Below, piece after piece: positions 1,997 to 16,247 of a stretch of 16,822 nucleotides of DNA (within the stretch, counting starts at the first letter, position 1; every line of letters starts with the position of its first letter). The stretch covers positions 1 through 16,822 of the forward strand of contig JBBIMK010000034.1 in the NCBI GenBank assembly GCA_037444445.1, written 5' to 3'. Source of the DNA: a bacterium (GTDB lineage: Bacteria; UBP7; UBA6624; JBBIMK01). Position numbers and translations under genes: made by a program. The notes below the pieces were generated by a model that was not told the DNA's origin, did no database searches, and was given only the letters and a program-made list of their open reading frames with translations.

Positions 1997-2463
1997 CGTT
2001 CACCCATAAAAATTTTAAATTTTCCCTTCAGTCTATGTCTACGCAAAATACTTGACAGGAGTTTTCTATCTATTTTTGTTTGTTCCAAAAGCCTAACAAT
2101 TTTCTCCCTGTCTTTCAACCGGAACACAGAGAGAAAAATCGCGAACAGGTATTCTGGTCGCAAGATTTTTACCTGGATATTTTTATATTTCACGGAAACA
2201 GCATGGTGGACAGCTTCTTTTTCCAGCGCCGTCGTAGCGGGTATAAATAGTATGGGCGTTTCGCCTATCAAGATATACTCTTTGTAAGTCTTATACCCTT
2301 TTTGGGTTAGGTAATCATAGAAGGGCGTCAGCAAGAGTAAACCCTGTTCTTCAGGTGGAATAAAAAAAATGTCCACATGGCGTGTGGCAAAAGGTTCTGT
2401 ATAATAGATGGTAGCGATTGCACCGCCGGTGGCGTAATTATCAAGGATTCCTTCTGCATGCAT
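1993..2463 (-). CDS. Minimal nucleotidyltransferase-fold (MNT/DUF6036-like) protein, hypothetical
   Basis: 156-aa ORF with ATG at 2463. The N-terminal ATGGAIATIYYTEPFATRHVDIFF resembles the hG[GS]...DxD strand-helix-strand of minimal NTases, but only one Asp is retained. A C-terminal RLKDREKIVRLL helix is as in AbiEii/MNT-like proteins. Weak Shine-Dalgarno. Confidence 0.6.
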   Translation of the reverse strand: MHAEGILDNYATGGAIATIYYTEPFATRHVDIFFIPPEEQGLLLLTPFYDYLTQKGYKTYKEYILIGETPILFIPATTALEKEAVHHAVSVKYKNIQVKILRPEYLFAIFLSVFRLKDREKIVRLLEQTKIDRKLLSSILRRHRLKGKFKIFMGER

Positions 2464-2653
2464 TCTGCTTATGATTCTTCATGCGCGTTCCATATTAGAA
2501 GTTCATACTTTCTTGCGTAAGTATGAAAACCCATTACGTCTTCTTGCGGGCCCAAAGCCCTCCGGGGCAAGGGATAAAATCTTACCGGCAAGATGGCGAT
2601 GTTTCAGAGGGCGTTTTCATTGGCCTGGCTCCGTTCACCATCACAATTTTACC

Positions 2654-2682
2654 ATAGATAAAAGATGGGTCAAGGTGCGAAA
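2654..2682. repeat. Right copy of the imperfect direct repeat flanking the 1769-2463 cassette
   Basis: ATAGATAAAAGATGGGTCAAGGTGCGAAA, with the exact core at 2661-2672. Weaker similarity continues ~30 nt rightwards in both copies (..CTGAAGGGTG..CTGGGTGGGCGG versus ..CTAAAGCCTGATGGGTGGATGG). Confidence 0.6.
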
Positions 2683-2737
2683 GGGTCTAAAGCCTGATGG
2701 GTGGATGGAGGAAGTGGAATGAATGTCCACCTCACTT

Positions 2738-2767
2738 TTGATTTTTTCACAGAGTATATACTATAAT
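2738..2767 (+). promoter_or_regulatory. Sigma-70-type promoter upstream of the superoxide dismutase gene
   Basis: TTGATT (2738-2743), 18-nt spacer, then a perfect TATAAT (2762-2767). The predicted start near 2774 lies upstream of the TTG 2798 start and its GAGAGGTGAGAGGAAG purine tract. Confidence 0.5.
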
Positions 2768-2797
2768 TTATGGTGGTAGTTGAGAGGTGAGAGGAAG

Positions 2798-3517
2798 TTG
2801 GTTGGTTTGAACCGGAGGCAATTTCTAACAGGTGCCGTTTCCTCTCTCTTCTCGTGGTGGTGGGTTTTTCCGAAAATGTCAGGGGAAAAGAAAAATCTGA
2901 AAGCCCCGTTCGGAGTCGGGGCAAGGAGGAGAAAAATGAAATACGAGTTACCCCCTTTACCTTATTCTTATGATGCTCTGGAGCCTTATATTGACTCCAG
3001 GACGATGGAGATTCATCACACGAAGCACCATCAGGCGTATGTGAATAATCTCAACGCCGTTCTGGAGAAGTATCCGGACCTGCAGGATAAAGCACTGGAG
3101 GACCTGTTGAGGAATCTTTCCAGCCTGAAGATGGAGGAGAAGGACCGCACGATTCTAAAGAATCATGGGGGCGGGCATATCAATCACTCCCTCTTCTGGC
3201 AGATTATGGGACCATCCAAGCAGGTGGATGAGGTCCTGAGGGCAGAAATCCAGAAGGAATTTGGGTCCTTTGATGAGTTCAAGAAGGTCTTCAGCCAGAC
3301 TGCCATTGCCCATTTTGGCTCGGGCTGGGCGTGGCTGGTGCGGGATGAAAATCAGAAATTGAAAGTCTATTCTCTTCCCAACCAGGATTCTCCATATCTC
3401 CAGGGGCATATTCCCATCATCGGGCTGGATGTGTGGGAGCACGCCTATTATCTCAAGTATCAGAATCGGCGGAATGAGTATGTGGAAGCCTGGTGGAATG
3501 TGCTAAAACTTTTATAG
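2798..3517 (+). CDS. sodA: Mn-type Fe/Mn-family superoxide dismutase, possibly with a twin-arginine signal/anchor
   Basis: Mature part [36 protein letters not shown].., [16 protein letters not shown] and [15 protein letters not shown] contain the metal ligands and the Mn-type signature (GGGH.NHS.FW plus Q in NQD). The start is ambiguous. ATG 2936 has a perfect AGGAGG 6 nt upstream and gives 193 aa. In-frame TTG 2798 (or 2780) adds a leader containing [20 protein letters not shown]. Confidence 0.93.
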
Positions 3518-3540
3518 AACGAGGGCGTCAATATATGGCG

Positions 3541-5658
3541 TCAGTCGGGGACGATTTCTATGAAGTCGCTCCCCAGTTTTACAATCAGGGATTTCCCTAA
3601 GGAGAGATAGGAGGCTATATCGGGGTGATTTTTTAAGAGTTCAAAGTATTCCTCACTGAGGAAGACGACCTTTTTTGTGGTTTCACCCTGGTATTCTGTA
3701 TCTTCCCAGCGACCTTTTCGGAGGACGAAGGCTTTCTCGCCGATTACCCGAAGGGATTCACCTGTCTGTTCAGGAGGGGAAATCGCTCTCTCTGCGGATT
3801 TTAAGGCGGCCATCTCTTGTGAGGTGGACATAGCGGGTGCGCCTGCGGCTGCCGATTGCCCAAGGTAACGGTCCGTCATCATTTGCGCCATAGGTGTGGG
3901 CACGGGCTGTTCCTGGACCAAAAAGGAGGTGTAAGGGGTGAGGATGCCATATTTTCTGGAGAGGGCGACGACGGAGGAAATCAGTTCCGGGTTAGAGCCT
4001 TTGAGTCGGATTTCATCCAAGAGGTGGCCGATTTTCCTGGTTGCCCAGAGGCGAGCCACATAGGGCTTGTCTTCATCTCGGGCGGGGAAGTAGAGGGTGT
4101 AAGAGGACGATTGAATTTTCTGCCCCACCCTGCCTTGAAGGCGGATGGTGACACTTCCGGAGCCGGAATACCGCCCGGCGATGACTGCCTGCGAGCCGCC
4201 GAAAATGTCTGGCAATCCTTGCGGGTACAGGTCATACACCCCGATTCCGTCGTAGGAAAGGGTGGGGCTGGATAGCACCGGGCTTTTGATTTTCATATAC
4301 AGTGCAGAGACCTTGCTTTCTATGTTCTCGGACGGGAAGACATAATCGGAAGAGCCACCGTTTTGCTGAGCCAGTTTATCCAGGAAGAAGACATTCACAT
4401 CGGTGCCCACGCCGAAGACGAAGAGCCTGCATCGGTTGGAGAATAACTTTTTCTGCTGCTCTGCCACATCCTGCAAAAGGGCCTCCAGGTCTGTTTTTCC
4501 CTCCGTGGGGTTGCCATCGGTGAGGAAGATGGCATAACAGGGGAGGGAAGAGCCTGCGGGCATAGAGAGGGCGGTAGACAGGGCATCGCCGATGTTGGTT
4601 CCGCCCACTGCCTCCACCTGGTCCACGAATTGCCGGGCCTGCGTCAGGGTTTCCTCATTCACGCGCTGTAAAGAATCAAAAAGGGTGCGGACCCCGCTGG
4701 AAAAGGCGATGAGATTAAACCGGTCCCGGGGGTTCAAATGCTCCAGAATAAAGCGAAGCCCCCCCTTCGCCTGCTGGATTTTCTCCCCCGACATACTGCC
4801 GGAAGTATCCAGAATGAAGAGGAAGTTCTTGGCTTCCACCTCCTGCTCTATCAGGCTTCCGGGGGAGAGAAGGAGTAGAAAGTAGCCGTCTTCACCGCTG
4901 ATGCGGTAGGGAATCATATCCACCGAGATTTTCTCATTTCCCGCGGAATAATACAGGGCGAAATTCTGGCTAAAATCCTTCTTCGTGCCTTCCAATGATA
5001 CGCTGGCTGAAGTGGGAGAATTCCGAACCACCTCCACAGAATGGGTGGGGGAATAGATGGTTTTCAGCGGCTGTTTGGAGGAGAGGGCAATGGAGATGGA
5101 GAGTGTTTCCGGGGGCGTTTCCGTGGTGGCTTTCAAAGGGAGGGCGAGTTGATAGAAGTTCCCGCTGGCAGGAACCACCTGGGAGTAGGAGATTTTCAGC
5201 GTTCTGCGGGCGCCTGGCGGGACGGGAAAGATGCGGGCAGAAAGCAAGCCATTCCCCAGGAAGGATAAGAGGGCTGGGTCGCGACGCCTGCGGACGATGC
5301 TTTCATATATCCCCCGCGCCTGGTTCGCATCCAGTAGTTCACCCCCCACCTCCACCCCATCCATCCAGATGGAAAATCGCTCTATGGAAATCTCCTGTGG
5401 CACGGGGAGTAGAAAGGTGCCTTCCGCAGGCAGTGAGCCGGTGTTTTCAAACACCTCTTCTATGGTGATGCGGGCGGTGGCGCCGGTTGCCTCCCCGCGA
5501 ATCTTCAAGTCCACCGGCTTCAATTCCCCGGGCCATACAGGCGGAGGAACAGGGGGCGGGGGTAGAGGGGGCAGGATTCGCTCTCCACCCGCCCCTGTAA
5601 GCAATCCGATGAACCCTAACAATACCCCATACACAAACACCCTTTTACTTTTTCTCAT
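3541..5658 (-). CDS. Secreted/membrane-anchored VIT domain + von Willebrand factor A domain protein
   Basis: 705-aa ORF. ATG 5658 has GAGGTGA 6 nt upstream and overlaps the anti-sigma gene by 14 nt. N-terminal signal/anchor (VFVYGVLLGFIGLLTGAGG) and a poly-Pro linker. VIT-like block (ARITIEEVFENTG..EGTFLLPVP..IYESIVRRRRDPALLSF..ARIFPVPPG..KISYSQVV). VWA block with MIDAS motif FILDTSGSMSG. Confidence 0.9.
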   Translation of the reverse strand: MRKSKRVFVYGVLLGFIGLLTGAGGERILPPLPPPPVPPPVWPGELKPVDLKIRGEATGATARITIEEVFENTGSLPAEGTFLLPVPQEISIERFSIWMDGVEVGGELLDANQARGIYESIVRRRRDPALLSFLGNGLLSARIFPVPPGARRTLKISYSQVVPASGNFYQLALPLKATTETPPETLSISIALSSKQPLKTIYSPTHSVEVVRNSPTSASVSLEGTKKDFSQNFALYYSAGNEKISVDMIPYRISGEDGYFLLLLSPGSLIEQEVEAKNFLFILDTSGSMSGEKIQQAKGGLRFILEHLNPRDRFNLIAFSSGVRTLFDSLQRVNEETLTQARQFVDQVEAVGGTNIGDALSTALSMPAGSSLPCYAIFLTDGNPTEGKTDLEALLQDVAEQQKKLFSNRCRLFVFGVGTDVNVFFLDKLAQQNGGSSDYVFPSENIESKVSALYMKIKSPVLSSPTLSYDGIGVYDLYPQGLPDIFGGSQAVIAGRYSGSGSVTIRLQGRVGQKIQSSSYTLYFPARDEDKPYVARLWATRKIGHLLDEIRLKGSNPELISSVVALSRKYGILTPYTSFLVQEQPVPTPMAQMMTDRYLGQSAAAGAPAMSTSQEMAALKSAERAISPPEQTGESLRVIGEKAFVLRKGRWEDTEYQGETTKKVVFLSEEYFELLKNHPDIASYLSLGKSLIVKLGSDFIEIVPD

Positions 5659-6568
5659 CCGATTTCACCTCGGGATATTTTTCTTTTGAAGTGGACACTT
5701 CACTTTTGCCCTGAGACCCGGCTTCCCGGATTTTCAATTTCAAAATCGTCTGGTCTCCCTGCTGAACGGCCTCTACGGTAAAATACCGGGATAACAAGGA
5801 TTTTAAAGATTTTAGAGAGTCGGGGGATAATTTCATCACGACTCGCTGTGGGGATTCTACTTTTGCTTTCTGCGCTTTCATAGCTCTTTTCTGGCTATCG
5901 TCCACAGAGGAAGCCTGTGGAGAAGGGGCGGAAGGTTCCAGCCCTTTCTCTTCCACCGCCTCCTTTTCTTCGGGTGTCTCAAACTCCAGAACCACGGGTT
6001 GCTCCAGGGGTGCTGATACGCATAACTCTACAGATTCTTGAGGAGGCAGAAACCCGGGAAGGAATGTTTCTGCAGGGGGTGAAGGGGGAGCGGATGGGGG
6101 TGAAGCGCCCTCCGCTCTGTCAGATATGGCCTGCCCCGGTGTAACCGGAGCCGGCTGAGCGGGAGGCGTTTCTTCTGCGAGGGGCCTGGCTGGCGAAGGT
6201 AGAGGCTCCTCAGAGGGGGCTTGCTTCATCTGATAGGCTCCCTTCGGCTCCTTTGCCATAGAAAAAAGTCGGGAGACTCCCGAGTAATATCCCGCATAAT
6301 AAGAAAGACCAATCAGGAAGAGAAAGGTTATCGTGGCGGGGGCGAGGAGAGGATAAAAAGATTTGCGAGGGCCACGGTATGCCAGTTCCCCACGGAAAAC
6401 CCTCCGGGGCAAGCCCCGAACTGCCTCAGAAACCTCCTGATAACTCCTCAGCGTGGCAGAACAGGTGGAACACACCAGAAGATGCTCTTCCACCCTCTTC
6501 CTTTCCTCCTCTGATATTTCCCCATCTAAATAAACGCTCAATTCTTCCGGCTGTAGATGATTATTCAT
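5645..6568 (-). CDS. zf-HC2 anti-sigma factor with single TM helix and Pro/Glu-rich extracytoplasmic region
   Basis: ATG 6568 with GGAGGGAG 6 nt upstream. The N-terminal LSVYLDGEISEEERKRVEEHLLVCSTCSATL carries the H-x3-C-x2-C zinc motif of ECF anti-sigmas. TM segment FYPLLAPATITFLFLIGLSYYAGYY. It lies 111 nt downstream of the ECF sigma gene. Confidence 0.8.
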   Translation of the reverse strand: MNNHLQPEELSVYLDGEISEEERKRVEEHLLVCSTCSATLRSYQEVSEAVRGLPRRVFRGELAYRGPRKSFYPLLAPATITFLFLIGLSYYAGYYSGVSRLFSMAKEPKGAYQMKQAPSEEPLPSPARPLAEETPPAQPAPVTPGQAISDRAEGASPPSAPPSPPAETFLPGFLPPQESVELCVSAPLEQPVVLEFETPEEKEAVEEKGLEPSAPSPQASSVDDSQKRAMKAQKAKVESPQRVVMKLSPDSLKSLKSLLSRYFTVEAVQQGDQTILKLKIREAGSQGKSEVSTSKEKYPEVKSDEKK

Positions 6569-6679
6569 TGAAATCTCCCTCCATTCTTGAACCCTTGTGC
6601 CTTGAATACGGCGAATGTATCTTCATTTTTGAATTCTTCTTTTTGAAGAGTGCCTCCTCTTTTCCCATCTAATTTCATC

Positions 6680-7240
6680 TCATCCCACTCCTTTTCCGTA
6701 TCCTAACAATCGTGCCAGGTTCTGCCTTGCGCGAGCGATTCTGGATTTCACGGTTCCGATGGAAAGGTTCAATGATTCGGCAATCTCCTCATAACTCATT
6801 CCTTCCATCTCTCGCAAAAGGAGGACGGAGCGGGCAGATTCAGGCAAAGAGGATAGGGCTTTCTGAACCTCCATCTGCGTTTCCAATCGCTCTATGCTTT
6901 CTTCCGGGTCTTCCATCCCTGCGGATGGATAGGAATCCGGCAGAGGGATGAAGGGTCTGAGAATCCATTTTCGGTAATGGCTTTTGAACAGGTTAGTAGC
7001 GATGCGGAACAGCCAGGGTTTGAATTTCTCCCGGTTCCGGAGAGATTTCAAGGACTGGTAGGCGCGGATGAAGGTTTCTTGAACCAGGTCCTCCGCCCTT
7101 TCATGATTTCGTGTGAGATAAAAGAGGTAATTGAACACGGCGTGCTGGTACCGAGCCATCAGGAGGTCAAAACTGTCCGTATCACCCACCAGGACATCTT
7201 CCACCAGCTGGGCATCCGTCATCTCTTCCTGTTCACCCAA
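6680..7240 (-). CDS. ECF-type (group 4) sigma-70 family RNA polymerase sigma factor
   Basis: Region 2 (FDLLMARYQHAVFNYLFYLTRNHERAEDLVQETFIRAY) and region 4 HTH (MSYEEIAESLNLSIGTVKSRIARARQNL). TTG start at 7240 is preceded by AGGAGGT with an 8-nt spacer. An alternative ATG lies at 7222. Confidence 0.9.
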   Translation of the reverse strand: MGEQEEMTDAQLVEDVLVGDTDSFDLLMARYQHAVFNYLFYLTRNHERAEDLVQETFIRAYQSLKSLRNREKFKPWLFRIATNLFKSHYRKWILRPFIPLPDSYPSAGMEDPEESIERLETQMEVQKALSSLPESARSVLLLREMEGMSYEEIAESLNLSIGTVKSRIARARQNLARLLGYGKGVG

Positions 7241-7380
7241 TAAATATGACCTCCTTTGAGGATGAAAAGTTCCACCCTCTGTATTTTCTCACATCCGGGA
7301 ATAAACTTCCACCCTGCCTCACCCTGTTTGGAAATGCAAAAATAGGGTATGATGGTAGACAGCAAAGGACAGGTGTAAAT

Positions 7381-8020
7381 ATGTTAAATCAAGTTCAAAT
7401 TAAAAATTTCAAGTTGCACGAGGAAAGTTCGTTCAAGTTTGCCCCCATCACGCTCTTCATCGGACCGAACAACACGGGGAAATCCAGCGTCTTCCAGGTT
7501 CTCCAACTCCTCAAGCAAGCCTCTGTGAATCCACGTTTTAATACTCCTATTATTATAAGCCCCAAGGAGAATTTCATATCCCTCATTTGCCTTGGTTCTT
7601 TCCCTTCTCATCAACGAAGGCTCTGGCGCCAACCAACTGCCTTACATCATTCTGCCCCTTTTCTTTACCCCTTCGGGCGGAAGCCTCATCCTTTATGAGC
7701 CCGAGGCTCACCTGCACCCCGGGGCGCAATCGGAATTGATGAAAGAAATCCTCTTGAAATCCCACAAAGCGGAAAACAAACAGTTGTTAATAGAAACCCA
7801 CAGCGAACATATCCTTCACAGCTTTCTTTATGCAGTTCGGAAAGGCGACCTTAAGCCGGAAGATGTGGCCATCTACTATTTTGACAACCCCGACCCGAAA
7901 GAAAGAAAGGCGAAATACGAGCGTCTGGAAATAACCAATGAAGGGCAAGTGAAAGGAGGACTTCCGGGATACTACGACCAGGCTCTGGTGGAACTTAAGC
8001 AAATGCTGGAACCCGTATAG
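7381..8020 (+). pseudogene. Frameshifted, internally shortened ABC/AAA_21-type ATPase with DUF3696-like C-terminus
   Basis: The frame-1 ORF (track 7246..7698, likely ATG 7381) encodes MLNQVQIKNFKLHE..ITLFIGPNNTGKSS (Walker A). The frame-2 ORF (7592..8020) encodes EGSGANQL (signature-like), LILYEPEAHLHP (Walker B), IETHSEHIL (H-loop) and EDVAIYYF..LPGYYDQ. Frame 2 opens only after TAA 7556-7558, so a +1 shift must lie in 7559-7600. After that point the frame-1 product reads like junk. Confidence 0.6.
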
Positions 8021-8022
8021 CC

Positions 8023-8499
8023 TTGCCCAAAAGGATATTCCTGGATAAGAATTTTTACCATTTCCTTTTAAATGGGAATCCGCTATGCAGACGTGCACTT
8101 ATGGACATTGGAGTTATCTGTCATAAAATCCTCACCGGTAAAACCACTTCTAAACGCATCTCCGAACTGTTAGACAGAGGAGTTCCATCTGTAGACCAAT
8201 GGTTTTTGAACTACTTCAGAGAATTGCTTGGAAATTCAGAAAAACTTCCCCTGAATTTTTCAGACCCCCCTCATTTTCCAAAAGAAGAGGAAGCCATCAA
8301 AAAAGTGAAAGATGAGGATGTTCAAATTCTGCGTGAGGTGAGATATTCATCCGCGGAGGCATTCGTGAGTTACGATGAGGGGCTGGTCAACGATATAAGG
8401 TCTTCCAGTAATTTGCACGACTTTCAATTTGCCGTGTTTCTCCTGCCCTCCGACGAGAGCGATTTCTTCCAATATCTTCAATCAGCATCCGGGGGATAA
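8023..8499 (+). CDS. PIN-like domain protein (putative nuclease), hypothetical
   Basis: 158-aa ORF. Its TTG start lies 2 nt after the ATPase TAG stop. Four acidic positions are spaced as in PIN domains: RIFLDKNFY (strand 1 Asp), ISELLD, KDEDVQILREV and AFVSYDEGL. The family call rests on pattern only. Confidence 0.5.
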   Translation: MPKRIFLDKNFYHFLLNGNPLCRRALMDIGVICHKILTGKTTSKRISELLDRGVPSVDQWFLNYFRELLGNSEKLPLNFSDPPHFPKEEEAIKKVKDEDVQILREVRYSSAEAFVSYDEGLVNDIRSSSNLHDFQFAVFLLPSDESDFFQYLQSASGG

Positions 8500-8672
8500 C
8501 CTCAAGAGGTCGCTTTGTTTGGATTGGGAATCCCGGGGATGGTTTAGATTCAGGAGCGAGGCGAGGATTTCCACAGCAGGGCACAGAATATAGAGGGTGC
8601 CTCGTTCATTCAGCCGGCACGCCGTCTGAGCGAACTACCAGTAAAGACATCGGGGCATAGGGAAAGAAAAAA

Positions 8673-8796
8673 GGTCCCGGGCAACGACCTACTTTCCCGT
8701 GCCGTTACCAGCACAGTATCATCGGCGGTAGCGGGCTTAGCTTCCGGGTTCGGGATGGTTCCGGGCGTTTCCCCGCTCCTATGGTCACCCAGGACC
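8673..8796 (-). rRNA. rrf: 5S ribosomal RNA
   Basis: The reverse complement reads GGTCCTGGGTGACCATAGGAGCGGGGAAACGCCCGGAACCATCCCGAACCCGGAAGCTAAGCCCGCTACCGCCGATGATACTGTGCTGGTAACGGCACGGGAAAGTAGGTCGTTGCCCGGGACC. It has the universal CCGAAC, GAAG..AAG, GCCGATG.TACTG and GGGA.AGTAGGTCG blocks, and the helix I ends are complementary. Exact ends are uncertain by a few nt. Confidence 0.92.
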
Positions 8797-8803
8797 ATCA
8801 TTA

Positions 8804-8832
8804 TATATACCACAATCTGAAGGATGTTGCAA
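8804..8832 (-). promoter_or_regulatory. Dedicated sigma-70 promoter of the 5S rRNA gene
   Basis: On the minus strand: TTGCAA (8832-8827), 17-nt spacer ending in TGG (extended -10), then TATATA (8809-8804, overlapping a TATAAT two nt further on). The predicted start falls within a few nt of the mature 5S 5' end. Confidence 0.6.
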
Positions 8833-8862
8833 GAGGGGGGAGGGAGAAAATCAATTTGTGGA

Positions 8863-8891
8863 TTGACAGAAGGAAATTCAGATAGTAAACT
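8863..8891 (+). promoter_or_regulatory. Sigma-70 promoter of the A-type Fe-S carrier gene, back-to-back with the 5S promoter
   Basis: Perfect TTGACA (8863-8868), 17-nt spacer, TAAACT (8886-8891), about 33 nt upstream of ATG 8925. Confidence 0.55.
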
Positions 8892-8924
8892 CCATAGTGG
8901 ATACGAGAGGAGGGAGAGGTAGAG

Positions 8925-9248
8925 ATGATTACGGTAGCAGAACGGGCGGCAGGAGAAATTAGACGCCTGATGGAAGACCAGAAGATGGAGGGGATGAATC
9001 TTCGCCTCCGCGTGGTGCCAGGCGGATGCTCCGGCTTCCAGTATTATATGGGGTTTGATGAAACGCTGGACCCGGATGACCTGGTGTTTGAAGCCAACGG
9101 CGTGAAGGTGGTGGTGGACCCGCAGAGCCACCTCTACCTGGATGGCGCAGAAATTGATTATGAGGAAGGCTTGATGGGCGCAGGATTTACCATCAGAAAC
9201 CCCCACGCCAGAGGCTCCTGCGGTTGCGGTTCCTCTTTCTCGGTCTAA
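8925..9248 (+). CDS. HesB/IscA/ErpA-family A-type iron-sulfur cluster carrier
   Basis: 107 aa with GGAGGGAGAGG upstream of the ATG. Contains LRLRVVPGGCSGFQY and the C-terminal NPHARGSCGCGSSFSV, which provide the three conserved cluster-ligand Cys. Confidence 0.92.
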   Translation: MITVAERAAGEIRRLMEDQKMEGMNLRLRVVPGGCSGFQYYMGFDETLDPDDLVFEANGVKVVVDPQSHLYLDGAEIDYEEGLMGAGFTIRNPHARGSCGCGSSFSV

Positions 9249-9276
9249 ATCCTATCCCGGACCAAAAGAGGTGGAA

Positions 9277-9519
9277 ATGACGCAGGTGGAGCAGAAGATT
9301 TTACTGAATTTGAGCGACCTGATGGATGGAAAGCTGTCGGAGGAATCTTTTCGGCGAAGACTGGCTGAACTGAATACAGAGGAGTATCGGGGAGCGGTGG
9401 TGCAGTTGAAGGGCTGTGCCCCCACCTGGGCCTATCTGATGGCCGCCCATACCCTGAAAAGCGTGGTGGCAGGGCTGGAATTCGTTTCCTACGACGGCAA
9501 AGCCATCCGGATTTTCTAA
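9277..9519 (+). CDS. Small protein with Csx3 (Crn3 ring-nuclease)-like core motif, hypothetical
   Basis: 80 aa from ATG 9277 (GAGG 5 nt upstream; the track starts at GTG 9271), 28 nt after the carrier gene. RGAVVQLKGCAPTWAYLMAAHTLKSVVAGLEFVSYDGKAIRIF resembles the Csx3 core G-V-V-I-S-G-R-G-P-I-W-L..L-A-H...V-Y-D-P-R-L-G. Coding status is likely. The family call is tentative. Confidence 0.55.
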   Translation: MTQVEQKILLNLSDLMDGKLSEESFRRRLAELNTEEYRGAVVQLKGCAPTWAYLMAAHTLKSVVAGLEFVSYDGKAIRIF

Positions 9520-9576
9520 CGTCCGAAGGCGAAATAATGTCCTACTTTGGGGTCAGACCCCAAAATCTCAGTTATT

Positions 9577-10003: not shown

Positions 10004-10034
10004 AGAAGTGGTATGGGTCGGGAGGGCTGGTAGA

Positions 10035-13000
10035 ATGAAAAAACTTCAGAAGATTTTGTTTTTTGCTCTTTTCCAGATGGTGGCAATTTCTGGGCTGGAA
10101 GCCAGCCAGGCGGGGCAAGCCGACTTCCCCGTTCATCAGGCGGTTGAGATGTGGCTGGATGAGGGTAGCGGGCAAGAAGTTCCAGTGATCGTCCATCAAG
10201 TAGTAGCGCGATTCTCTTCCCGGGTGTTTCGGTGGCGGGTGGAAGAAATCGCAGAGGAATTTGAGTTAACCATCCTTCGTGCCATTCCGGAGTTGAATGC
10301 CTATCTCTTTCAGATACCGGAAGGGAAAACCATTCGGCAGACGATAGGTTTCTTGCAAGGGAAAGAAGAGACACTTTATTCCGAGCCGCATTTTCTGGCT
10401 CATCTCCAACTGGTGCCCAATGATACCTATTATTCTTCCTACCAGTGGCCTCTGAAACCACCTTCTGCACCTTACTACGGCAGAATCAACGCAGAGCAGG
10501 CGTGGGATATACAGCGGGGAAGCGCCTCGGTAACGGTGGCGGTGATTGATTCCGGTGTGGACACCAGCCATCCGGATTTGCAAGCCAACTGGGCATCCTG
10601 GGGGCAGGATACGGTGGATTTCATCGGGCAAACAAACACCAACCCTCCGTGTCAGCCAGATAACGACCCATACGATGCCAGTGATGTGGGGCATGGAACT
10701 GCAACTTCGGGGATTGTTTCCGCAGTGACGAATAACAATTTAGGCGTGGCAGGAACTGCGTGGAATGTAAAAATCCTCCCTCTTCGGGTTATCGGCAACT
10801 GCGAGGGCGCGGACGGCCTCGGTGGTGTATTTTTTATCTCCCAGGCGATTGTCTACGCAGGAAGCCGGAGCGATGTGAAAGTCATCAATTTGAGTCTGGG
10901 AGGTTCTACTCCCTCGGAACTGGAAGAAGATGCGGTGGAATACGCTTATGTCAACGGGAAACTGGTGGTTGCCTCCGCTGGCAACGATGGAGTGACCACC
11001 AAGGAATATCCCGCCGCTTTCCCACATGTGATGGCAATTACTTCTGTGGATGAGGACGGATTCAAGTCCAACTTCAGTAATTATGGTAACTGGGTTGACA
11101 TTGCGGCACCAGGTGGATTGAACTACACAGGCACTCTGGGCATCACTACGACGGATATGCAGGGAAATCTGGGTTTGGTTTCGGGGGACTATAATGCGGG
11201 GTTTGCGGGAACATCTGCTTCGGCTCCCTTTGTGGCAGGGGTTGCGGCTCTCGTTTTCTCCCACTTCCCCACCTGGACCCCGGACCAGGTGGAGGCGCAC
11301 CTGAAAGCCACCTCCACTCAGCCACCGGGATGGAATAACCTCTGGGGTGCGGGCATCGTGAATGCCTATAACGCTGTCTCCGCCCTGAATGATACGGTTC
11401 CTCCAGCAGTGACGGGCGCAGAAGCCATAGCCAGCGACCGGGTGAATGTCTACTTCAGTGAAGTGATGGACCCGGTCTCAGCCAGCGATAAAACGAATTA
11501 TACCATCACCGGAGGAAGTGGCTTAACCGTCTGGGAGGTTTTCCTTTCCCCTGATGGGAAAACCGCACAACTGCTGACTTCTTCCCAGACGGGCGGAATA
11601 TCTTATACCGTCACCGTCTCTACCAATGTGAAGGACAATCACGGGAATCCTTTACCTTCTGCCATCGGCCTGCGCTCCGCCAACTTCGTGGGCACGAATC
11701 AGGATAGGAACATCGCCTTGCAGAGTAATGGCGGCGTTGCCTCTGCACGCTTCGGCGCCAGTGTAGATTTGTGCGACCCCGACGCTACTTCTGCTTATGC
11801 CAACGATGGAAACCTCTCCACTGCCTGGCAAAAGGCTTTAGACCCCAATTCTACGGACTTCCTGATGGTGCGATTCCCCTCCCCTTACCGAATTGAGAAA
11901 ATCGTGGTTCGCACGGACCCGGGCTATCCCCTGGAATACCACATTGAAGCCGGGTGGGCTCTATGCGGTATCATTACGAATATCGTGGTGCCGAGAGGAA
12001 GCTATAACGGAACGCAAACCTTCACCCTGAACACAGCAGAAAATGCCCGGGAGGTGATGGTTGTTTTCTATTCCGCCCAGGGGTCGCCCTCCGGCACGGC
12101 AAAGGTGATTGAACTGGAGGTCTACGGCGAGAAGCCCGTGGAGACGATTCCGCCGGATGTGGCGATAACAAGCCCCATTCCAGGAGCCTCCCTCCGTCAA
12201 ACGGTGAACATTCAGGCGAATGCCACCGATAACACGGCGGTGGAACGCGTGGAATTCTATCGCGACCTTTCTCTCCTGTGCACCGATACCACCTCTCCCT
12301 ATACCTGCTCCTATAACACCACTTTAGATAGCGATGGTGCCAAATCTCTCTCCGCAACAGCCTACGACATCTTCGGGAATGCAGGCTTCTCTAACCCGGT
12401 GAATGTGACCGTGGACAATACGCCGCCGGATACGAGCCTTATGCAGAAACCCCCTGTTTATGCCTCCTCTACCACGGCAGTATTTGAGTTCACCGGCACG
12501 GATAATCTCACGCCTTCCCCGGGCCTGACTTATGAATGCAAACTGGATGGGGGCAATTGGGAACCCTGCACCTCGCCCAGGTCTTTTACCGGGCTCTCCG
12601 AGGGCAGTCATACTTTCCAGGTTCAGGCTTTTGACCGAGCGGGGAACCCGGACTACTCTCCCGCATCTTATACCTGGACCGTGGATACCATACCCCCGGA
12701 TACGCAAATCACCTCCGGTCCTGAAGAAGGGAGCCTGACCCGTTCTCGCCAGGCAAATTTCTCCTTCATTTCTAATGAAAGCAGTGCCTCCTTTGAGTGT
12801 CAGTTAGATGCGGGTTCCTGGGCAGACTGCTTTTCACCCTACGGCTATGTGTCTCTGAGTGACGGCTCGCATACCTTCCGCACTCGCGCCACCGACCCAG
12901 CAGGGAATGTGGATAATACGCCGGCAGAACGAAACTGGCGTGTGGACGCCACACCTCCCATCATTACCATCACTTCAGGTCCGCAGGAGGGAGATTTTAT

Positions 13001-14627
13001 CCATACTTCCACCGTAGATTTTGCTTTCACTTCCGACGAATCACCCACCACCTTTGAATGCAACTTTGATTCAACGGGCTGGGGGAACTGCTCCTCCCCT
13101 GCCACCTATTCCAATCTCTCGGAAGGTGCTCATCGCTTTGAGGTTCGGGGCATGGACGAGGCGGGTAATCTCTCTTCCCCCCTTCAGCGGAACTTCACCA
13201 CGGATTACACTCCACCCATTCTTACCTTCACTTCCGCACCGCCGGAGGGCGGGCTGGTGAATTCTTCCAACCCACACTTTGAGTTCACCGCTGACGAGCC
13301 CGTTACTTACCTGTGCCAGCTGGATTCGGAACCTGAAATGCCCTGCAGTTCCCCTTATGACCGAACCGGCATAGCCGATGGAAATCACACCTTTCAGGTG
13401 AAGGGCGTGGACCGGGCAGAAAATTCCGCCACGATAACTCGCTCCTGGACCACAGACACGCAGGCGCCGGATACCCTCATAGATTCAGGCCCTCCATCGC
13501 TCACGAACCAGAACTTCGCCACCTTCACCTTCCATGCGGAGGGAACGACTTATGAATGCAAACTGGATGGGGGCAATTGGGAACCCTGCACCTCGCCCAG
13601 GTCTTATACCGGGCTCTCCGATGGGTCACACCACTTTGAAGTTCGCGGCACCGATACCGCCGGGAATACCGACCCCTCCCCCGCCGGGTATGACTGGACG
13701 ATTGATACGCAGGCGCCGGCGACAGTGCTTTTAGAGCGCCCTCCCAACTCCACCCCTTCCCCAATGGCACATTTTACTTTCGTTTCCGATGACCCCAACG
13801 CCACCTTCCTGTGCAAACTGGACAGCGAAAATTTTACACTCTGTAATAGCCCCTTTGACCGCCAGGTTGCCCCGGGTAGCCATCTCTTCTCCGTTCTGGC
13901 GAAGGATACCGCTGGAAACCTTGACCCCACACCAGAATCGTATTCCTGGAATGTCATCACCGGCAATCTGATGGTGGCACTGGGTCCCAATTCACCGACG
14001 AGCGGTAAAGTGATGAACCCTTCTTCCCCCGTTCCCATCCTTCAGTTGAAACTGACCTCCAGCGGTGTGGAAGGCTCAAAAATCACAGGCCTTGTTGTCA
14101 CTGCCAGCGGGAATGGGAACGATGCCACCGACATTGCCTCCGTTTTGCTGATTAGCGACACGAACGCCAACGGGAAAATAGATGAAGGTGAGCCCTCTCT
14201 GGGTGGCAGTCTCTACTCCACTGATGATGGCACAGCCACCTTCGCTCTGAACCAAACCCTGCCCGCCAGCCAGGATGCTTACTGGCTCGTGGCGTATACC
14301 TTCACTGGCACCCAGCCCTCCGCCAACCGTTTGGGGCGAAGAACCTTACCCGTTACTGCCTGTTGGCTACTGGCTTTCGTCTTCACTGGCTTGCTCGGCA
14401 TCCGCCGCTTCCGCGGTTCTCCCTTCCTCCTTCCTCTGTTACTCTTCAGTGCCATTCTCTGGCTGTCTTCCTGCGGCGGAGGAGGTGGAGCGCCTCCTCT
14501 CCCCGCCAGAACATTCACCGCCACTGTGTCCTCACCTTCCGGTATTCAGGCAGTGGGGGAAACCTCTGGCGTCCCCTTGCCCGTTACCGGTTCCTTCCCC
14601 CTCACTGGCGCCACCCTCTCCCGATAG
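10035..14627 (+). CDS. Giant secreted S8 (subtilisin-family) serine peptidase with propeptide, Ig-like, discoidin-like and six tandem Cys-pair repeat domains
   Basis: ATG 10035 with GGGAGGG ~8 nt upstream (the track ORF starts at GTG 10008). Signal peptide MKKLQKILFFALFQMVAISGLEASQA. Catalytic triad: Asp in VAVIDSGVD (10548-10550), His in HGTATSG (10692-10694), Ser in GTSASAP (11214-11216). SbsA-type Ig-like domain (~11400-11690). F5/8-type-C/discoidin-like domain (~11709-12137). Ig-like domain (PPDVAITSP..VTVDNT). Six ~85-aa repeats. The C-terminal beta-sandwich-like domain is followed by hydrophobic tails. Confidence 0.93.
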   Translation: MKKLQKILFFALFQMVAISGLEASQAGQADFPVHQAVEMWLDEGSGQEVPVIVHQVVARFSSRVFRWRVEEIAEEFELTILRAIPELNAYLFQIPEGKTIRQTIGFLQGKEETLYSEPHFLAHLQLVPNDTYYSSYQWPLKPPSAPYYGRINAEQAWDIQRGSASVTVAVIDSGVDTSHPDLQANWASWGQDTVDFIGQTNTNPPCQPDNDPYDASDVGHGTATSGIVSAVTNNNLGVAGTAWNVKILPLRVIGNCEGADGLGGVFFISQAIVYAGSRSDVKVINLSLGGSTPSELEEDAVEYAYVNGKLVVASAGNDGVTTKEYPAAFPHVMAITSVDEDGFKSNFSNYGNWVDIAAPGGLNYTGTLGITTTDMQGNLGLVSGDYNAGFAGTSASAPFVAGVAALVFSHFPTWTPDQVEAHLKATSTQPPGWNNLWGAGIVNAYNAVSALNDTVPPAVTGAEAIASDRVNVYFSEVMDPVSASDKTNYTITGGSGLTVWEVFLSPDGKTAQLLTSSQTGGISYTVTVSTNVKDNHGNPLPSAIGLRSANFVGTNQDRNIALQSNGGVASARFGASVDLCDPDATSAYANDGNLSTAWQKALDPNSTDFLMVRFPSPYRIEKIVVRTDPGYPLEYHIEAGWALCGIITNIVVPRGSYNGTQTFTLNTAENAREVMVVFYSAQGSPSGTAKVIELEVYGEKPVETIPPDVAITSPIPGASLRQTVNIQANATDNTAVERVEFYRDLSLLCTDTTSPYTCSYNTTLDSDGAKSLSATAYDIFGNAGFSNPVNVTVDNTPPDTSLMQKPPVYASSTTAVFEFTGTDNLTPSPGLTYECKLDGGNWEPCTSPRSFTGLSEGSHTFQVQAFDRAGNPDYSPASYTWTVDTIPPDTQITSGPEEGSLTRSRQANFSFISNESSASFECQLDAGSWADCFSPYGYVSLSDGSHTFRTRATDPAGNVDNTPAERNWRVDATPPIITITSGPQEGDFIHTSTVDFAFTSDESPTTFECNFDSTGWGNCSSPATYSNLSEGAHRFEVRGMDEAGNLSSPLQRNFTTDYTPPILTFTSAPPEGGLVNSSNPHFEFTADEPVTYLCQLDSEPEMPCSSPYDRTGIADGNHTFQVKGVDRAENSATITRSWTTDTQAPDTLIDSGPPSLTNQNFATFTFHAEGTTYECKLDGGNWEPCTSPRSYTGLSDGSHHFEVRGTDTAGNTDPSPAGYDWTIDTQAPATVLLERPPNSTPSPMAHFTFVSDDPNATFLCKLDSENFTLCNSPFDRQVAPGSHLFSVLAKDTAGNLDPTPESYSWNVITGNLMVALGPNSPTSGKVMNPSSPVPILQLKLTSSGVEGSKITGLVVTASGNGNDATDIASVLLISDTNANGKIDEGEPSLGGSLYSTDDGTATFALNQTLPASQDAYWLVAYTFTGTQPSANRLGRRTLPVTACWLLAFVFTGLLGIRRFRGSPFLLPLLLFSAILWLSSCGGGGGAPPLPARTFTATVSSPSGIQAVGETSGVPLPVTGSFPLTGATLSR
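12423..13964 (+). repeat. Six tandem ~257-nt (about 85-aa) coding repeats inside the subtilase gene
   Basis: Each unit follows PPDT.I.SGP...(x)..F.F..... (F/Y)(E/L)C.LD...W..C.SP..Y..LSDGSH.F.V.A.D.AGN.D..PA...W.VDT with two conserved Cys. Units start near 12423, 12690, 12951, 13209, 13464 and 13710. Confidence 0.85.
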
Positions 14628-14756: not shown

Positions 14757-16247
14757 ATGAGGGGAAAAAGGGAAGCGATGCAGAAAGCGAAGGTATGGAG
14801 GCAGGACATCCTTTGCTTTATTCGGGAGATGTTCGGGGAGGAGGCAGACCCTCTGCAGGCGGAGGTGCTTCGCTCCATTCAAAATGAGGAGCGGGTAGCG
14901 GTGCGGTCAGGGCACGGGACCGGGAAAACCTGGCTCGCCTCCCGGGCTGGTCTCTGGTTCTTCACCACCCATCCCGAATCTAAGGTTCTCATCACCGCCC
15001 CCACCTGGCGTCAGGTGGAAAAGGTCTTCTGGGCGGAAATCCACGCCCGAGTCCATCAGACGATGTTAGCCACTTTAGCCGAATTTCAGAAAGCCCAGGC
15101 ATTTATGAAAATCCCACGGAAAAACGATGGCAAGAAGCGAACGCCAGCAGAGCACTGGTTTATGACCGGCATTTCCTCCGATGCCCCTGAAAACTTCCAG
15201 GGCTTTCACGGCCGGTATGTGATGTTCATCGTGGATGAAGCCAGCGGGGTGATGGATGAAATCTTTGATGCCATTGAGGCTTGCCGGGCCACAGGGGAAT
15301 CCAAGATTCTGGTGATAGGCAACCCCACGCGTCCTACGGGGCGGTTCTACGAAATTTTCCACCCCCGCACCCCTCATTCTCCCTGGGTTCTTCACCACCT
15401 TTCCTGCCTGAAAAGCCCCCGGGTGAACCCGAAATGGGTGGAAGAGAAGAAACGGGAATGGGGTGAGGATTCTAACCTGTATCGCGTCCGCGTCCTCGGC
15501 GAATTCCCCCATCAGGCAGATGACGCTCTTTTCTCCCTACATCTTTTAGAGAAAAGCCGACGGGAAGAAGAGGATGCACCTGCCGGCTTCGCCCTGAAAA
15601 ATATCGCATATTCCATCGGGGTGGATGTGGCGCGATTCGGGGAAGATAAAACCGTTCTCACCGTGGTGGAAGCCCTGCGAATACCCGGAGAATCATCCAC
15701 ACGCTATCGGGTGAGGGAAATCTATGCGTATGAGAAACTACCGGTGAGTGGCACAGTAAATATGGTTTTAGACCTCATTGAGCGAATGGTGAAGTCGGCA
15801 GAGTCCATCACCATCCTCGTGGATGACACCGGGCTGGGCGGTGGCGTCACGGACCTCTTGCACCGGGAACTGGAGGTGCGAGCTACCGGCGCCTGCGATA
15901 TTCGCGTGATGCCCGTGGTTTTCGGCTCCGCCCCCATCCCCCAGAACTCTTTCGCCCAGGCTTCTCTTTTCTTCTCCAACCTGAAAGCCCAACTGGTGTG
16001 GAATGTCAAAACACTGTTTGAATCCGGGAATGTGGAAATTTCGGGGGACATTCTGCCGGACTGGATTGACCTTCTATTCGCCCAGTTGCTGGATATTCGC
16101 TACGAATTCACTGCAGGGGGACGTTTGCAGGTCATTGACCCACCGGGCAAAAGCCCAGATTTCGCCCATTCCCTGGCTCTCGCCCTCGCTTCCGCCCTCC
16201 TCCAGCCACTGCATCCCCACCTCGGAGTCGTGAAACTCAACCCCTGA
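14757..16247 (+). CDS. Phage-type terminase large subunit (TerL-like ATPase + RNase H-fold nuclease)
   Basis: Walker A VRSGHGTGKTW and Walker B VMFIVDEASG in the N-terminal half. Nuclease-domain acidic motifs IGVDVARFGEDKTVLTVV, ILVDDTGLGGGVTD and SPDFAHSLALAL in the C-terminal half. The start is either ATG 14757 or ATG 14778 (purine-rich AGGGGAAAAAGGGAAG upstream). Confidence 0.85.
   Translation: MRGKREAMQKAKVWRQDILCFIREMFGEEADPLQAEVLRSIQNEERVAVRSGHGTGKTWLASRAGLWFFTTHPESKVLITAPTWRQVEKVFWAEIHARVHQTMLATLAEFQKAQAFMKIPRKNDGKKRTPAEHWFMTGISSDAPENFQGFHGRYVMFIVDEASGVMDEIFDAIEACRATGESKILVIGNPTRPTGRFYEIFHPRTPHSPWVLHHLSCLKSPRVNPKWVEEKKREWGEDSNLYRVRVLGEFPHQADDALFSLHLLEKSRREEEDAPAGFALKNIAYSIGVDVARFGEDKTVLTVVEALRIPGESSTRYRVREIYAYEKLPVSGTVNMVLDLIERMVKSAESITILVDDTGLGGGVTDLLHRELEVRATGACDIRVMPVVFGSAPIPQNSFAQASLFFSNLKAQLVWNVKTLFESGNVEISGDILPDWIDLLFAQLLDIRYEFTAGGRLQVIDPPGKSPDFAHSLALALASALLQPLHPHLGVVKLNP

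Follow-up and report, generated by a model that had tools for sequence, protein, structure and literature searches.

The 16,822-nucleotide (nt) contig JBBIMK010000034.1 of the bacterial genome assembly GCA_037444445.1, referred to here in its entirety as the window, contains a two-gene module at positions 7,381 to 8,499: the remains of an ATP-binding cassette (ABC) ATPase gene, followed by an open reading frame (ORF) for a PIN-like protein of 158 amino acids (aa). The best explanation of the evidence as a whole, and one held with high confidence, is that this is a decayed two-gene operon, in which an ATPase gene of the NsnB family has been killed by a 650-bp deletion, the PIN gene has remained intact, and the undamaged pair would have encoded an ATPase-gated nuclease. 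Judged from its sequence, the ATPase of the window is a pseudogene that arose through a single internal deletion and is neither a miniature nor a split enzyme. The module is made up of the following parts.

7381..7602, plus strand: 5' remnant of an NsnB-like ABC ATPase gene, in frame 1, with the N-terminal strand and Walker A
7600..7601, no strand: deletion junction, at which the window lacks 650 bp (3n+2) found in the relative L016 (L016rc 1615-2264)
7603..7698, plus strand: out-of-frame tail of the frame-1 ORF, PSHQRRLWRQPTALH, with its stop codon at 7696-7698
7601..8020, plus strand: 3' remnant of the ATPase gene, in frame 2 (ORF 7592-8020), from the signature to the DUF3696 tail
8023..8499, plus strand: PIN-like partner gene of 158 aa, intact, starting at a TTG 2 nt past the ATPase stop

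The deletion is defined by comparison with L016, a 4.2-kb contig from another sample that was found through its near-identical sigma factor. It has 93.4% nucleotide identity to the window by blastn and the same gene order (sigma factor, ATPase, PIN ORF, 5S rRNA, Fe-S gene), and its ATPase gene is uninterrupted and encodes 431 aa. The alignment falls into two blocks, with window 6198-7601 matching L016rc 200-1616 and window 7600-9575 matching L016rc 2265-4244. The missing 650 bp correspond to approximately codons 76 to 291 and 2 nt of codon 292 in L016 numbering, and in the intact copy a short pyrimidine microhomology (TTCT/TCTT) is present at both breakpoints. Mapping of the proteins against the ATPases of two other loci, L001 and L002, gives the same junction as the nucleotide comparison with L016: homology in frame 1 extends to ...LGSF (F = 7600-7602), at residue 67 of the L001 and L002 ATPases, and homology in frame 2 starts from SLLINEGSG (S = 7601-7603), at residue 286 of the L002 protein. 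One out-of-frame deletion of 650 bp therefore accounts for both the truncated middle of the protein and the change of frame. A first-pass annotation of the window had suspected that an internal deletion and a frameshift killed the gene, and the comparison with the 93%-identical L016 bears this out as one event. It had also placed a frame switch within 7559-7600; there is indeed one switch, although it is not spread over that interval but lies at the single junction 7600-7601.

The 5' remnant begins with the ATG at 7381 and its translation opens MLNQVQIKNFKLHEESSFKFAPITLFIGPNNTGKSS. It contains the Walker A motif FIGPNNTGKSS (GPNNTGKS) and matches positions 1-50 of the 374 in Pfam AAA_15 (E 2.3e-13) and positions 1-49 of the 345 in the PADLOC model for NsnB (E 2e-15). 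Through ...LGSF, it is equivalent to residues 1-76 of the intact 431-aa L016 orthologue, and it is colinear with L016rc to position 1616, with L002 over window 7377-7498 by blastn, and with L001 to ...GSF by protein alignment. Frame-1 homology stops at ...LGSF and the tail at 7603-7698 has no homology to ATPases. Frame 2 encodes a signature-like NEGSGANQL, the segment LILYEPEAHLHP with the Walker B motif LILYEPE, the H-loop IETHSEHIL (ETHSEH), and a DUF3696 tail. It matches positions 332-373 of the 374 in AAA_15, positions 1-50 of the 52 in Pfam DUF3696 (E 2.7e-5), and positions 216-344 of the 345 in NsnB (E 2.6e-27). This 3' remnant corresponds to residues 293-431 of the L016 orthologue, with 96% amino-acid identity. 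The spread of the ATPase motifs over two overlapping ORFs and the DUF3696-like tail, both described in the first-pass annotation, are thus upheld. Among the PADLOC models, NsnB gives the best match to the remnants and also to the intact relatives, with E-values of 1e-43 to 1e-52 for the relatives (1e-48 to 1e-52 for the intact orthologues). Approximately 165 positions of this model, between the frame-1 and frame-2 matches, are missing in the window. The deleted segment holds residues that are invariant in the family, including a PLRGxE motif that is probably the equivalent of the arginine-type Q-loop described for NsnB (PMC12065111). No single frame retains what a functional ABC ATPase requires, as Walker A is in frame 1, the remaining motifs are in frame 2, and approximately 216 codons between them are gone.

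It could be argued that the genome carries an intact 431-aa ATPase gene and that the metagenome assembler skipped the 650 bp. The gap is known from assembled sequence alone, on a single contig, with the window proteins P0001 and P0024 each recorded on one contig, and the same short pyrimidine sequence at both breakpoints might also be taken to point this way. However, assemblers use k-mers far longer than the 4-5 nt of this microhomology, the deleted segment is unique and non-repetitive, and both flanks are colinear with L016, for 1.4 kb and 2.0 kb. Deletions at short microhomology are a normal way for pseudogenes to arise. In addition, there is further decay in the family, with a frameshifted ATPase at the locus L015 and, in L016 itself, a Gly-to-Asp change in the signature motif and a CTG at the PIN start. 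An assembly artefact is therefore regarded as very unlikely.

The other possibility raised in the first-pass annotation was a genuinely split or minimal ATPase, in which the two fragments, either both made as such or fused by programmed frameshifting, would still function together with the PIN protein. The motifs are intact in both fragments and the 3' fragment has a ratio of non-synonymous to synonymous substitution rates (dN/dS) of 0.10 against L016. These points are set against the loss of approximately 216 codons, including PLRGxE, the full-length gene at the same site in the closest relative, L016, and the absence of such a short architecture among homologues in a search of 5.8 billion proteins. 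Where a homologue has both the N-terminal and the C-terminal end, its length is 360-462 aa, and the short homologues, of 135-280 aa, are all C-terminal fragments on short contigs, none of which joins Walker A to the signature motif; the suggestion that ATPases of ~210 aa might be common is thereby answered in the negative. The sole possible start for frame 2 is the TTG at 7592, where the nearest AAGGAG is 22 nt upstream and there is no nearby Shine-Dalgarno sequence, so that independent translation of the 3' fragment is unlikely. Programmed frameshifting was rejected, since the sequence at 7600 offers neither a slippery site nor a stop-codon context that could promote a +1 shift, and the codons are missing in any case. 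A working split or minimal enzyme is scarcely credible, and the single deletion is the preferred reading of the ATPase gene.

Downstream of the pseudogene, the 158-aa ORF is intact. Its start at TTG 8023, proposed in the first-pass annotation, is the true one because the N-terminal sequence RIFLDKNFYH is common to its homologues. The database call for this protein, P0024, is 132 aa long, starting too late at an internal ATG and dropping the first strand with the conserved Asp-8. A first search of the 5.8 billion proteins found only two full-length relatives, and an exhaustive profile search followed by a profile-based search extended these to a rare family of approximately 45 clusters of 143-165 aa, all unannotated. 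Pattern scans with the family alignment A1 found no relatives in genome or metagenome contigs. Sequence searches of the PDB with profiles A1 and A4 gave nothing significant, with sub-threshold matches only, such as the NYN/PIN-like ZC3H12C at E 1.6.

The protein is PIN-like, as had been suggested from the spacing of its acidic residues; this is supported by the predicted fold and by that spacing. The AlphaFold2 model, made from a seven-sequence alignment, has a mean confidence (pLDDT) of 89.1 and a predicted template-modelling score (pTM) of 0.86. In a Foldseek search of the PDB with this model, PIN proteins occupy 19 of ranks 1-20, among them PAE2754, Pfu-367848, PH0500, and VapC of several species, with probabilities of 0.96-1.0 and TM-scores of 0.45-0.64 over these ranks. 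Rank 6, 8wmm, is a chain of a Cas9-PcrIIC1 complex and is the one not counted as PIN. The best match in the viral library is likewise a PIN protein. Among 41 relatives, Pfam PIN matches three (best E 3.6e-4) and PIN_3 matches two (best E 1.1e-4), and family members also weakly match DUF5615, DUF4411, and PIN_5. Across the 41 members, D8 is conserved in 36 of 36, C33-H34 in all 41, K74 in 40, D99 in 40, and D/E118 in all 41. The hhalign comparison aligns D99 and D118 with the D...TxD motif of a Pfam-called VapC from the locus L013. With three of the four canonical acidic residues conserved, catalysis is plausible, and the protein is the presumed nuclease effector of the module.

The association between the two genes is not confined to the window. 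It had been asked whether they co-occur in other genomes, and this is the case at every locus examined, approximately 35 in all. A PIN-family ORF lies directly 3' of an AAA_15 (+DUF3696) ATPase at L001, L002/3, L006-8, L009/10, L011/12, L013, L014, L015, and L016, with a spacing that ranges from a 4-nt overlap to a 30-nt gap. GTDB was scanned with the ATPase alignment, using one genome per species, and the 23 closest loci were taken. At 22 of these the ORF right after the ATPase belongs to the PIN family, with E-values of 1e-40 to 1e-62, and the remaining one, L024, has only a short match of 36.6 bits. The PIN-paired loci are mainly in Acidobacteriota/Terriglobia metagenome-assembled genomes.

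A pairing of a DUF3696-type ATPase with a PIN-like protein is not in itself new, although the first-pass annotation knew of no such system. The Menshen defence system, which has been validated experimentally, consists of NsnA (a ParB-DUF262 sensor), NsnB (an ABC ATPase with DUF3696), and NsnC, which has an N-terminal inactive PIN-like (inPIN) domain and a C-terminal nuclease or toxin domain (PMC12065111). More distant ATPases in our searches have other partners of ~320-350 aa, and that of L097 is a canonical NsnC. The partner at the Nitrospira locus L030 is different from the PIN family and is 351 aa long.

Five loci, including L030, have an NsnB-like ATPase but no obvious NsnA, and the next gene in each encodes an unannotated protein of 330-350 aa without a PADLOC match. 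The partner ORFs are:

L004: 2184-3188
L030: 5176-6228
L058: 5437-6435
L065: 5536-6561
L075: 5686-6708

These five may be further two-gene variants that lack NsnA. The first search placed the ATPase of L004, P0002, among the closest intact homologues, yet it is only ~36-37% identical to that of L016.

In the window, the module adjoins a divergent ECF (extracytoplasmic function) sigma operon, as had been noticed, with the sigma gene at 6680-7240 (minus strand) and a zf-HC2 anti-sigma gene at 5645-6568 (minus strand). Two relatives, L017 and L018, have the same sigma operon without the module, and their synteny with the window ends just past the ECF sigma gene. The stretch from that point to the ATPase gene is:

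7295..7380, no strand: non-coding leader upstream of the module, with blastn synteny to the module-less L017 and L018 ending at 7294

One promoter-like site, at 7356-7385, is a consensus match only. The GC content of the module, 0.45, is slightly lower than the 0.52-0.60 of its flanks, and this, together with its absence from L017 and L018, indicates an accessory two-gene cassette. In the module-less relatives, an ARPP-1 (PF20208) gene (L017 1540-2496) and CBS and DUF2400 genes precede the ECF sigma gene; as these genes differ from those of the window, the region upstream of the sigma operon is a variable spot. Beyond the PIN-like gene, a lone 5S rRNA gene at 8676-8792 (minus strand; Rfam 95.7 bits) lies before an IscA/ErpA-type Fe-S gene. 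This region is colinear in L016, and the 16.8-kb contig as a whole has no 16S or 23S rRNA. Rfam and tRNA scans found only this orphan gene and no RNA element inside the module. Further downstream, an S8 peptidase of 1539 aa that contains many Ig-like domains (10008-14627) precedes a 496-aa ORF resembling a phage terminase large subunit at 14757-16247 (plus strand), which matches phrog_5902 (E 2.5e-53), phrog_2 (E 4.9e-38), and, weakly, Pfam Terminase_6N/6C. A prophage boundary may therefore be present at the 3' end of the contig.

There are signs that decay in this family goes beyond the one deletion. In L016 the signature motif reads NEGSDANQL (L016rc ~2291-2299), with Asp in place of the glycine conserved in all other aligned ATPases, and its PIN ORF has CTG (L016rc 2688-2690) where the window has its TTG start, which is why the gene caller missed it. 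These differences may reflect decay of the module in that strain as well, or errors of assembly. At L015 (3692-4970) a single frameshift splits the ATPase into ORFs of 115 aa and 294 aa, and the PIN-family gene downstream is open. Comparison of the window with L016 gave the following dN/dS values, which are based on small counts:

PIN gene: 0.75 (8.5 synonymous and 22.5 non-synonymous changes)
ATPase 3' remnant: 0.10
ATPase 5' remnant: 0.44
ECF sigma gene: 0.15
Fe-S gene: 0.12

This pattern of substitutions fits a recent deletion together with relaxed or diversifying selection on the PIN gene. The PIN gene has a weak TTG start, no Shine-Dalgarno sequence, and a position 2 nt past the ATPase stop, and at intact loci its translation is probably coupled to that of the ATPase. 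In the window, ribosomes stop at 7698 and the coupling is lost, so the PIN gene is probably poorly expressed or silenced and the module functionally dead.

For the intact pair, we tentatively propose a self-contained anti-phage system that has not been described before, a minimal relative or precursor of Menshen in which the ATPase both senses and gates and the PIN protein is the RNase effector. The mechanism is reasoned by analogy with the NsnB-NsnC complex predicted for Menshen and with the complexes of PARIS and Septu, for which structures have been solved. An oligomer of the ATPase would hold the PIN protein through the DUF3696 tails, a phage-derived cue would alter the binding or hydrolysis of ATP, and the PIN nuclease would be freed or activated, cutting RNA and halting growth of the infected cell. 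With no NsnA sensor, the PIN domain, with its candidate catalytic Asp residues, would be the effector itself.

Several points weigh against this interpretation of the module, in addition to the slight chance of an assembly artefact. The 158-aa protein has no match in Pfam (E up to 10), PADLOC, NCBIfam, or PHROG. The Foldseek E-values are modest, at 1e-3 to 1e-1 (1e-3 to 6e-2 over ranks 1-20), and the second canonical acidic position of PIN domains is variable, being G in the window and D, N, or H elsewhere. The dN/dS of 0.10 in the ATPase 3' remnant fits a recent deletion and would also fit continued selection on the fragment. Many of the loci are among housekeeping genes and not in obvious defence islands. 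The anti-phage role, the contact between the ATPase and the PIN protein, and the nuclease activity are all inferred.

An alternative is that the intact module has no anti-phage function and acts instead in the manner of a toxin-antitoxin system or in RNA processing, with the ATPase merely restraining or chaperoning a PIN RNase. PIN proteins are the classic VapBC-type toxins and the fold matches are mostly to VapC, many loci have housekeeping surroundings, and the repeated lesions, in the window and in L015, spare the PIN ORF together with the 3' part of the ATPase gene that encodes DUF3696. On the other hand, the ABC-ATPase-plus-nuclease pairs PARIS, Septu, and Gabija are defence systems. Several of the loci are in islands with restriction-modification, toxin-antitoxin, or Abi genes, or are on mobile elements: the neighbours are TrwB/TrwC, an integrase, and AbiEi/HEPN at L001, insertion sequence (IS) elements, two VapBC pairs, and HsdR at L013, and RelB/YafQ at L014. 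The distribution among close relatives is patchy, the module being missing in L017 and L018, and the nearest counterpart of the ATPase, NsnB, belongs to a defence system with experimental validation (PMC12065111). A role outside immunity is on this evidence considered unlikely. A more speculative idea follows from the sparing of the DUF3696-encoding 3' end and the PIN ORF by the lesions, which is that the module might be addictive, with the retained DUF3696 fragment still neutralising a PIN toxin.

Taken by itself, the locus is of little import: its ATPase gene is an ordinary pseudogene that one deletion produced, and the accessory pair to which it belongs seems to be in decay in this lineage. 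It does show that the 158-aa gene has been called too short, at 132 aa, and that its family is without a Pfam, PADLOC, NCBIfam, or PHROG model. Beyond this, the locus leads to a small family of strictly paired genes, chiefly of Acidobacteriota/Terriglobia metagenome-assembled genomes, and indicates that NsnB/DUF3696 ATPases also occur without NsnA, here beside a PIN domain that is predicted to be catalytically competent. If intact pairs protect their hosts against phage, they would provide a simpler system in which to probe the predicted DUF3696-PIN gating of Menshen and would represent one more type of ABC-ATPase-plus-nuclease defence. The wider family is an uncharacterised defence candidate of modest interest.

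Of the known systems, PARIS (AriA and the Toprim protein AriB) and Septu (PtuA and the HNH protein PtuB) share with this family the arrangement of an AAA_15/AAA_21 ABC ATPase followed by a small nuclease, and their ATPases are thought to hold and then release the nuclease. AriA is the second or third best PADLOC match. Unlike these systems, the partner here is PIN-like rather than Toprim/DUF4435 or HNH, with no match to AriB/Toprim (DUF4435) in the 158-aa protein, and the ATPase, which has DUF3696, matches the NsnB model with a far better score than it does those for AriA and PtuA. The ATPase models of the PADLOC candidates HEC-03 (HEC-03B) and PDC-M55 (PDC-M55A) match via the DUF3696-like tail, although with scores below that of NsnB, and none of the PADLOC partner models matches the 158-aa protein or its 40 relatives.

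The partner resembles VapC toxins in its predicted fold, its size (~130-160 aa), and three acidic positions (~8, 99, and 118). It differs in that an ABC ATPase is found upstream in place of a VapB-like antitoxin, conservation is lacking at the second canonical acidic position, the family has an invariant C33-H34 of its own and a K74 kept in all but one member, and the protein from the window matches no Pfam PIN model.

Menshen is the closest comparison. The ATPases of the window family are of the NsnB type, with an ABC/AAA_15 core, a GxG signature, and a C-terminal DUF3696 helical tail, and immediately 3' of them is a gene for a protein with a PIN-like fold, a fold that NsnC has in its N-terminal domain. 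In AlphaFold3 models of Menshen, the PIN-like domain of NsnC sits between two DUF3696 tails (PMC12065111). PAE2754 (1v8o/1v8p) is the top structural match both here and in that study. However, there is no NsnA gene adjoining any of the PIN-associated loci checked. Pfam gene tables have no DUF262 within ~5 kb in L001, L006-L011, or L013-L016, Pfam scans of upstream ORFs at five GTDB loci found PCMT, aldo-keto reductase, DUF488, or no match and not NsnA, and in the window the divergent ECF sigma gene is in this position. The partner is a single-domain protein of 143-165 aa with no C-terminal toxin domain, and it keeps D8, D99, and D/E118, whereas the inPIN domains of NsnC are without catalytic residues (PMC12065111). 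The ATPases are also longer, at 413-462 aa, than the 345 positions of the NsnB model. Homology of the PIN family to canonical NsnC was considered and rejected, as the PADLOC NsnC model does not match the family and hhalign against canonical NsnC gave E 0.55. With two of the three defining features failing (no NsnA and no two-domain NsnC), the family is not Menshen as defined. The published survey of Menshen was seeded on NsnA and by design would miss loci that lack it. The DUF3696 ATPase and PIN-like pairing is therefore already known from Menshen, and what is new is its occurrence without NsnA and with a single PIN domain that keeps its acidic residues. This NsnA-less, PIN-only form appears to be an undescribed variant of the Menshen-type pairing, with a putative role in defence.

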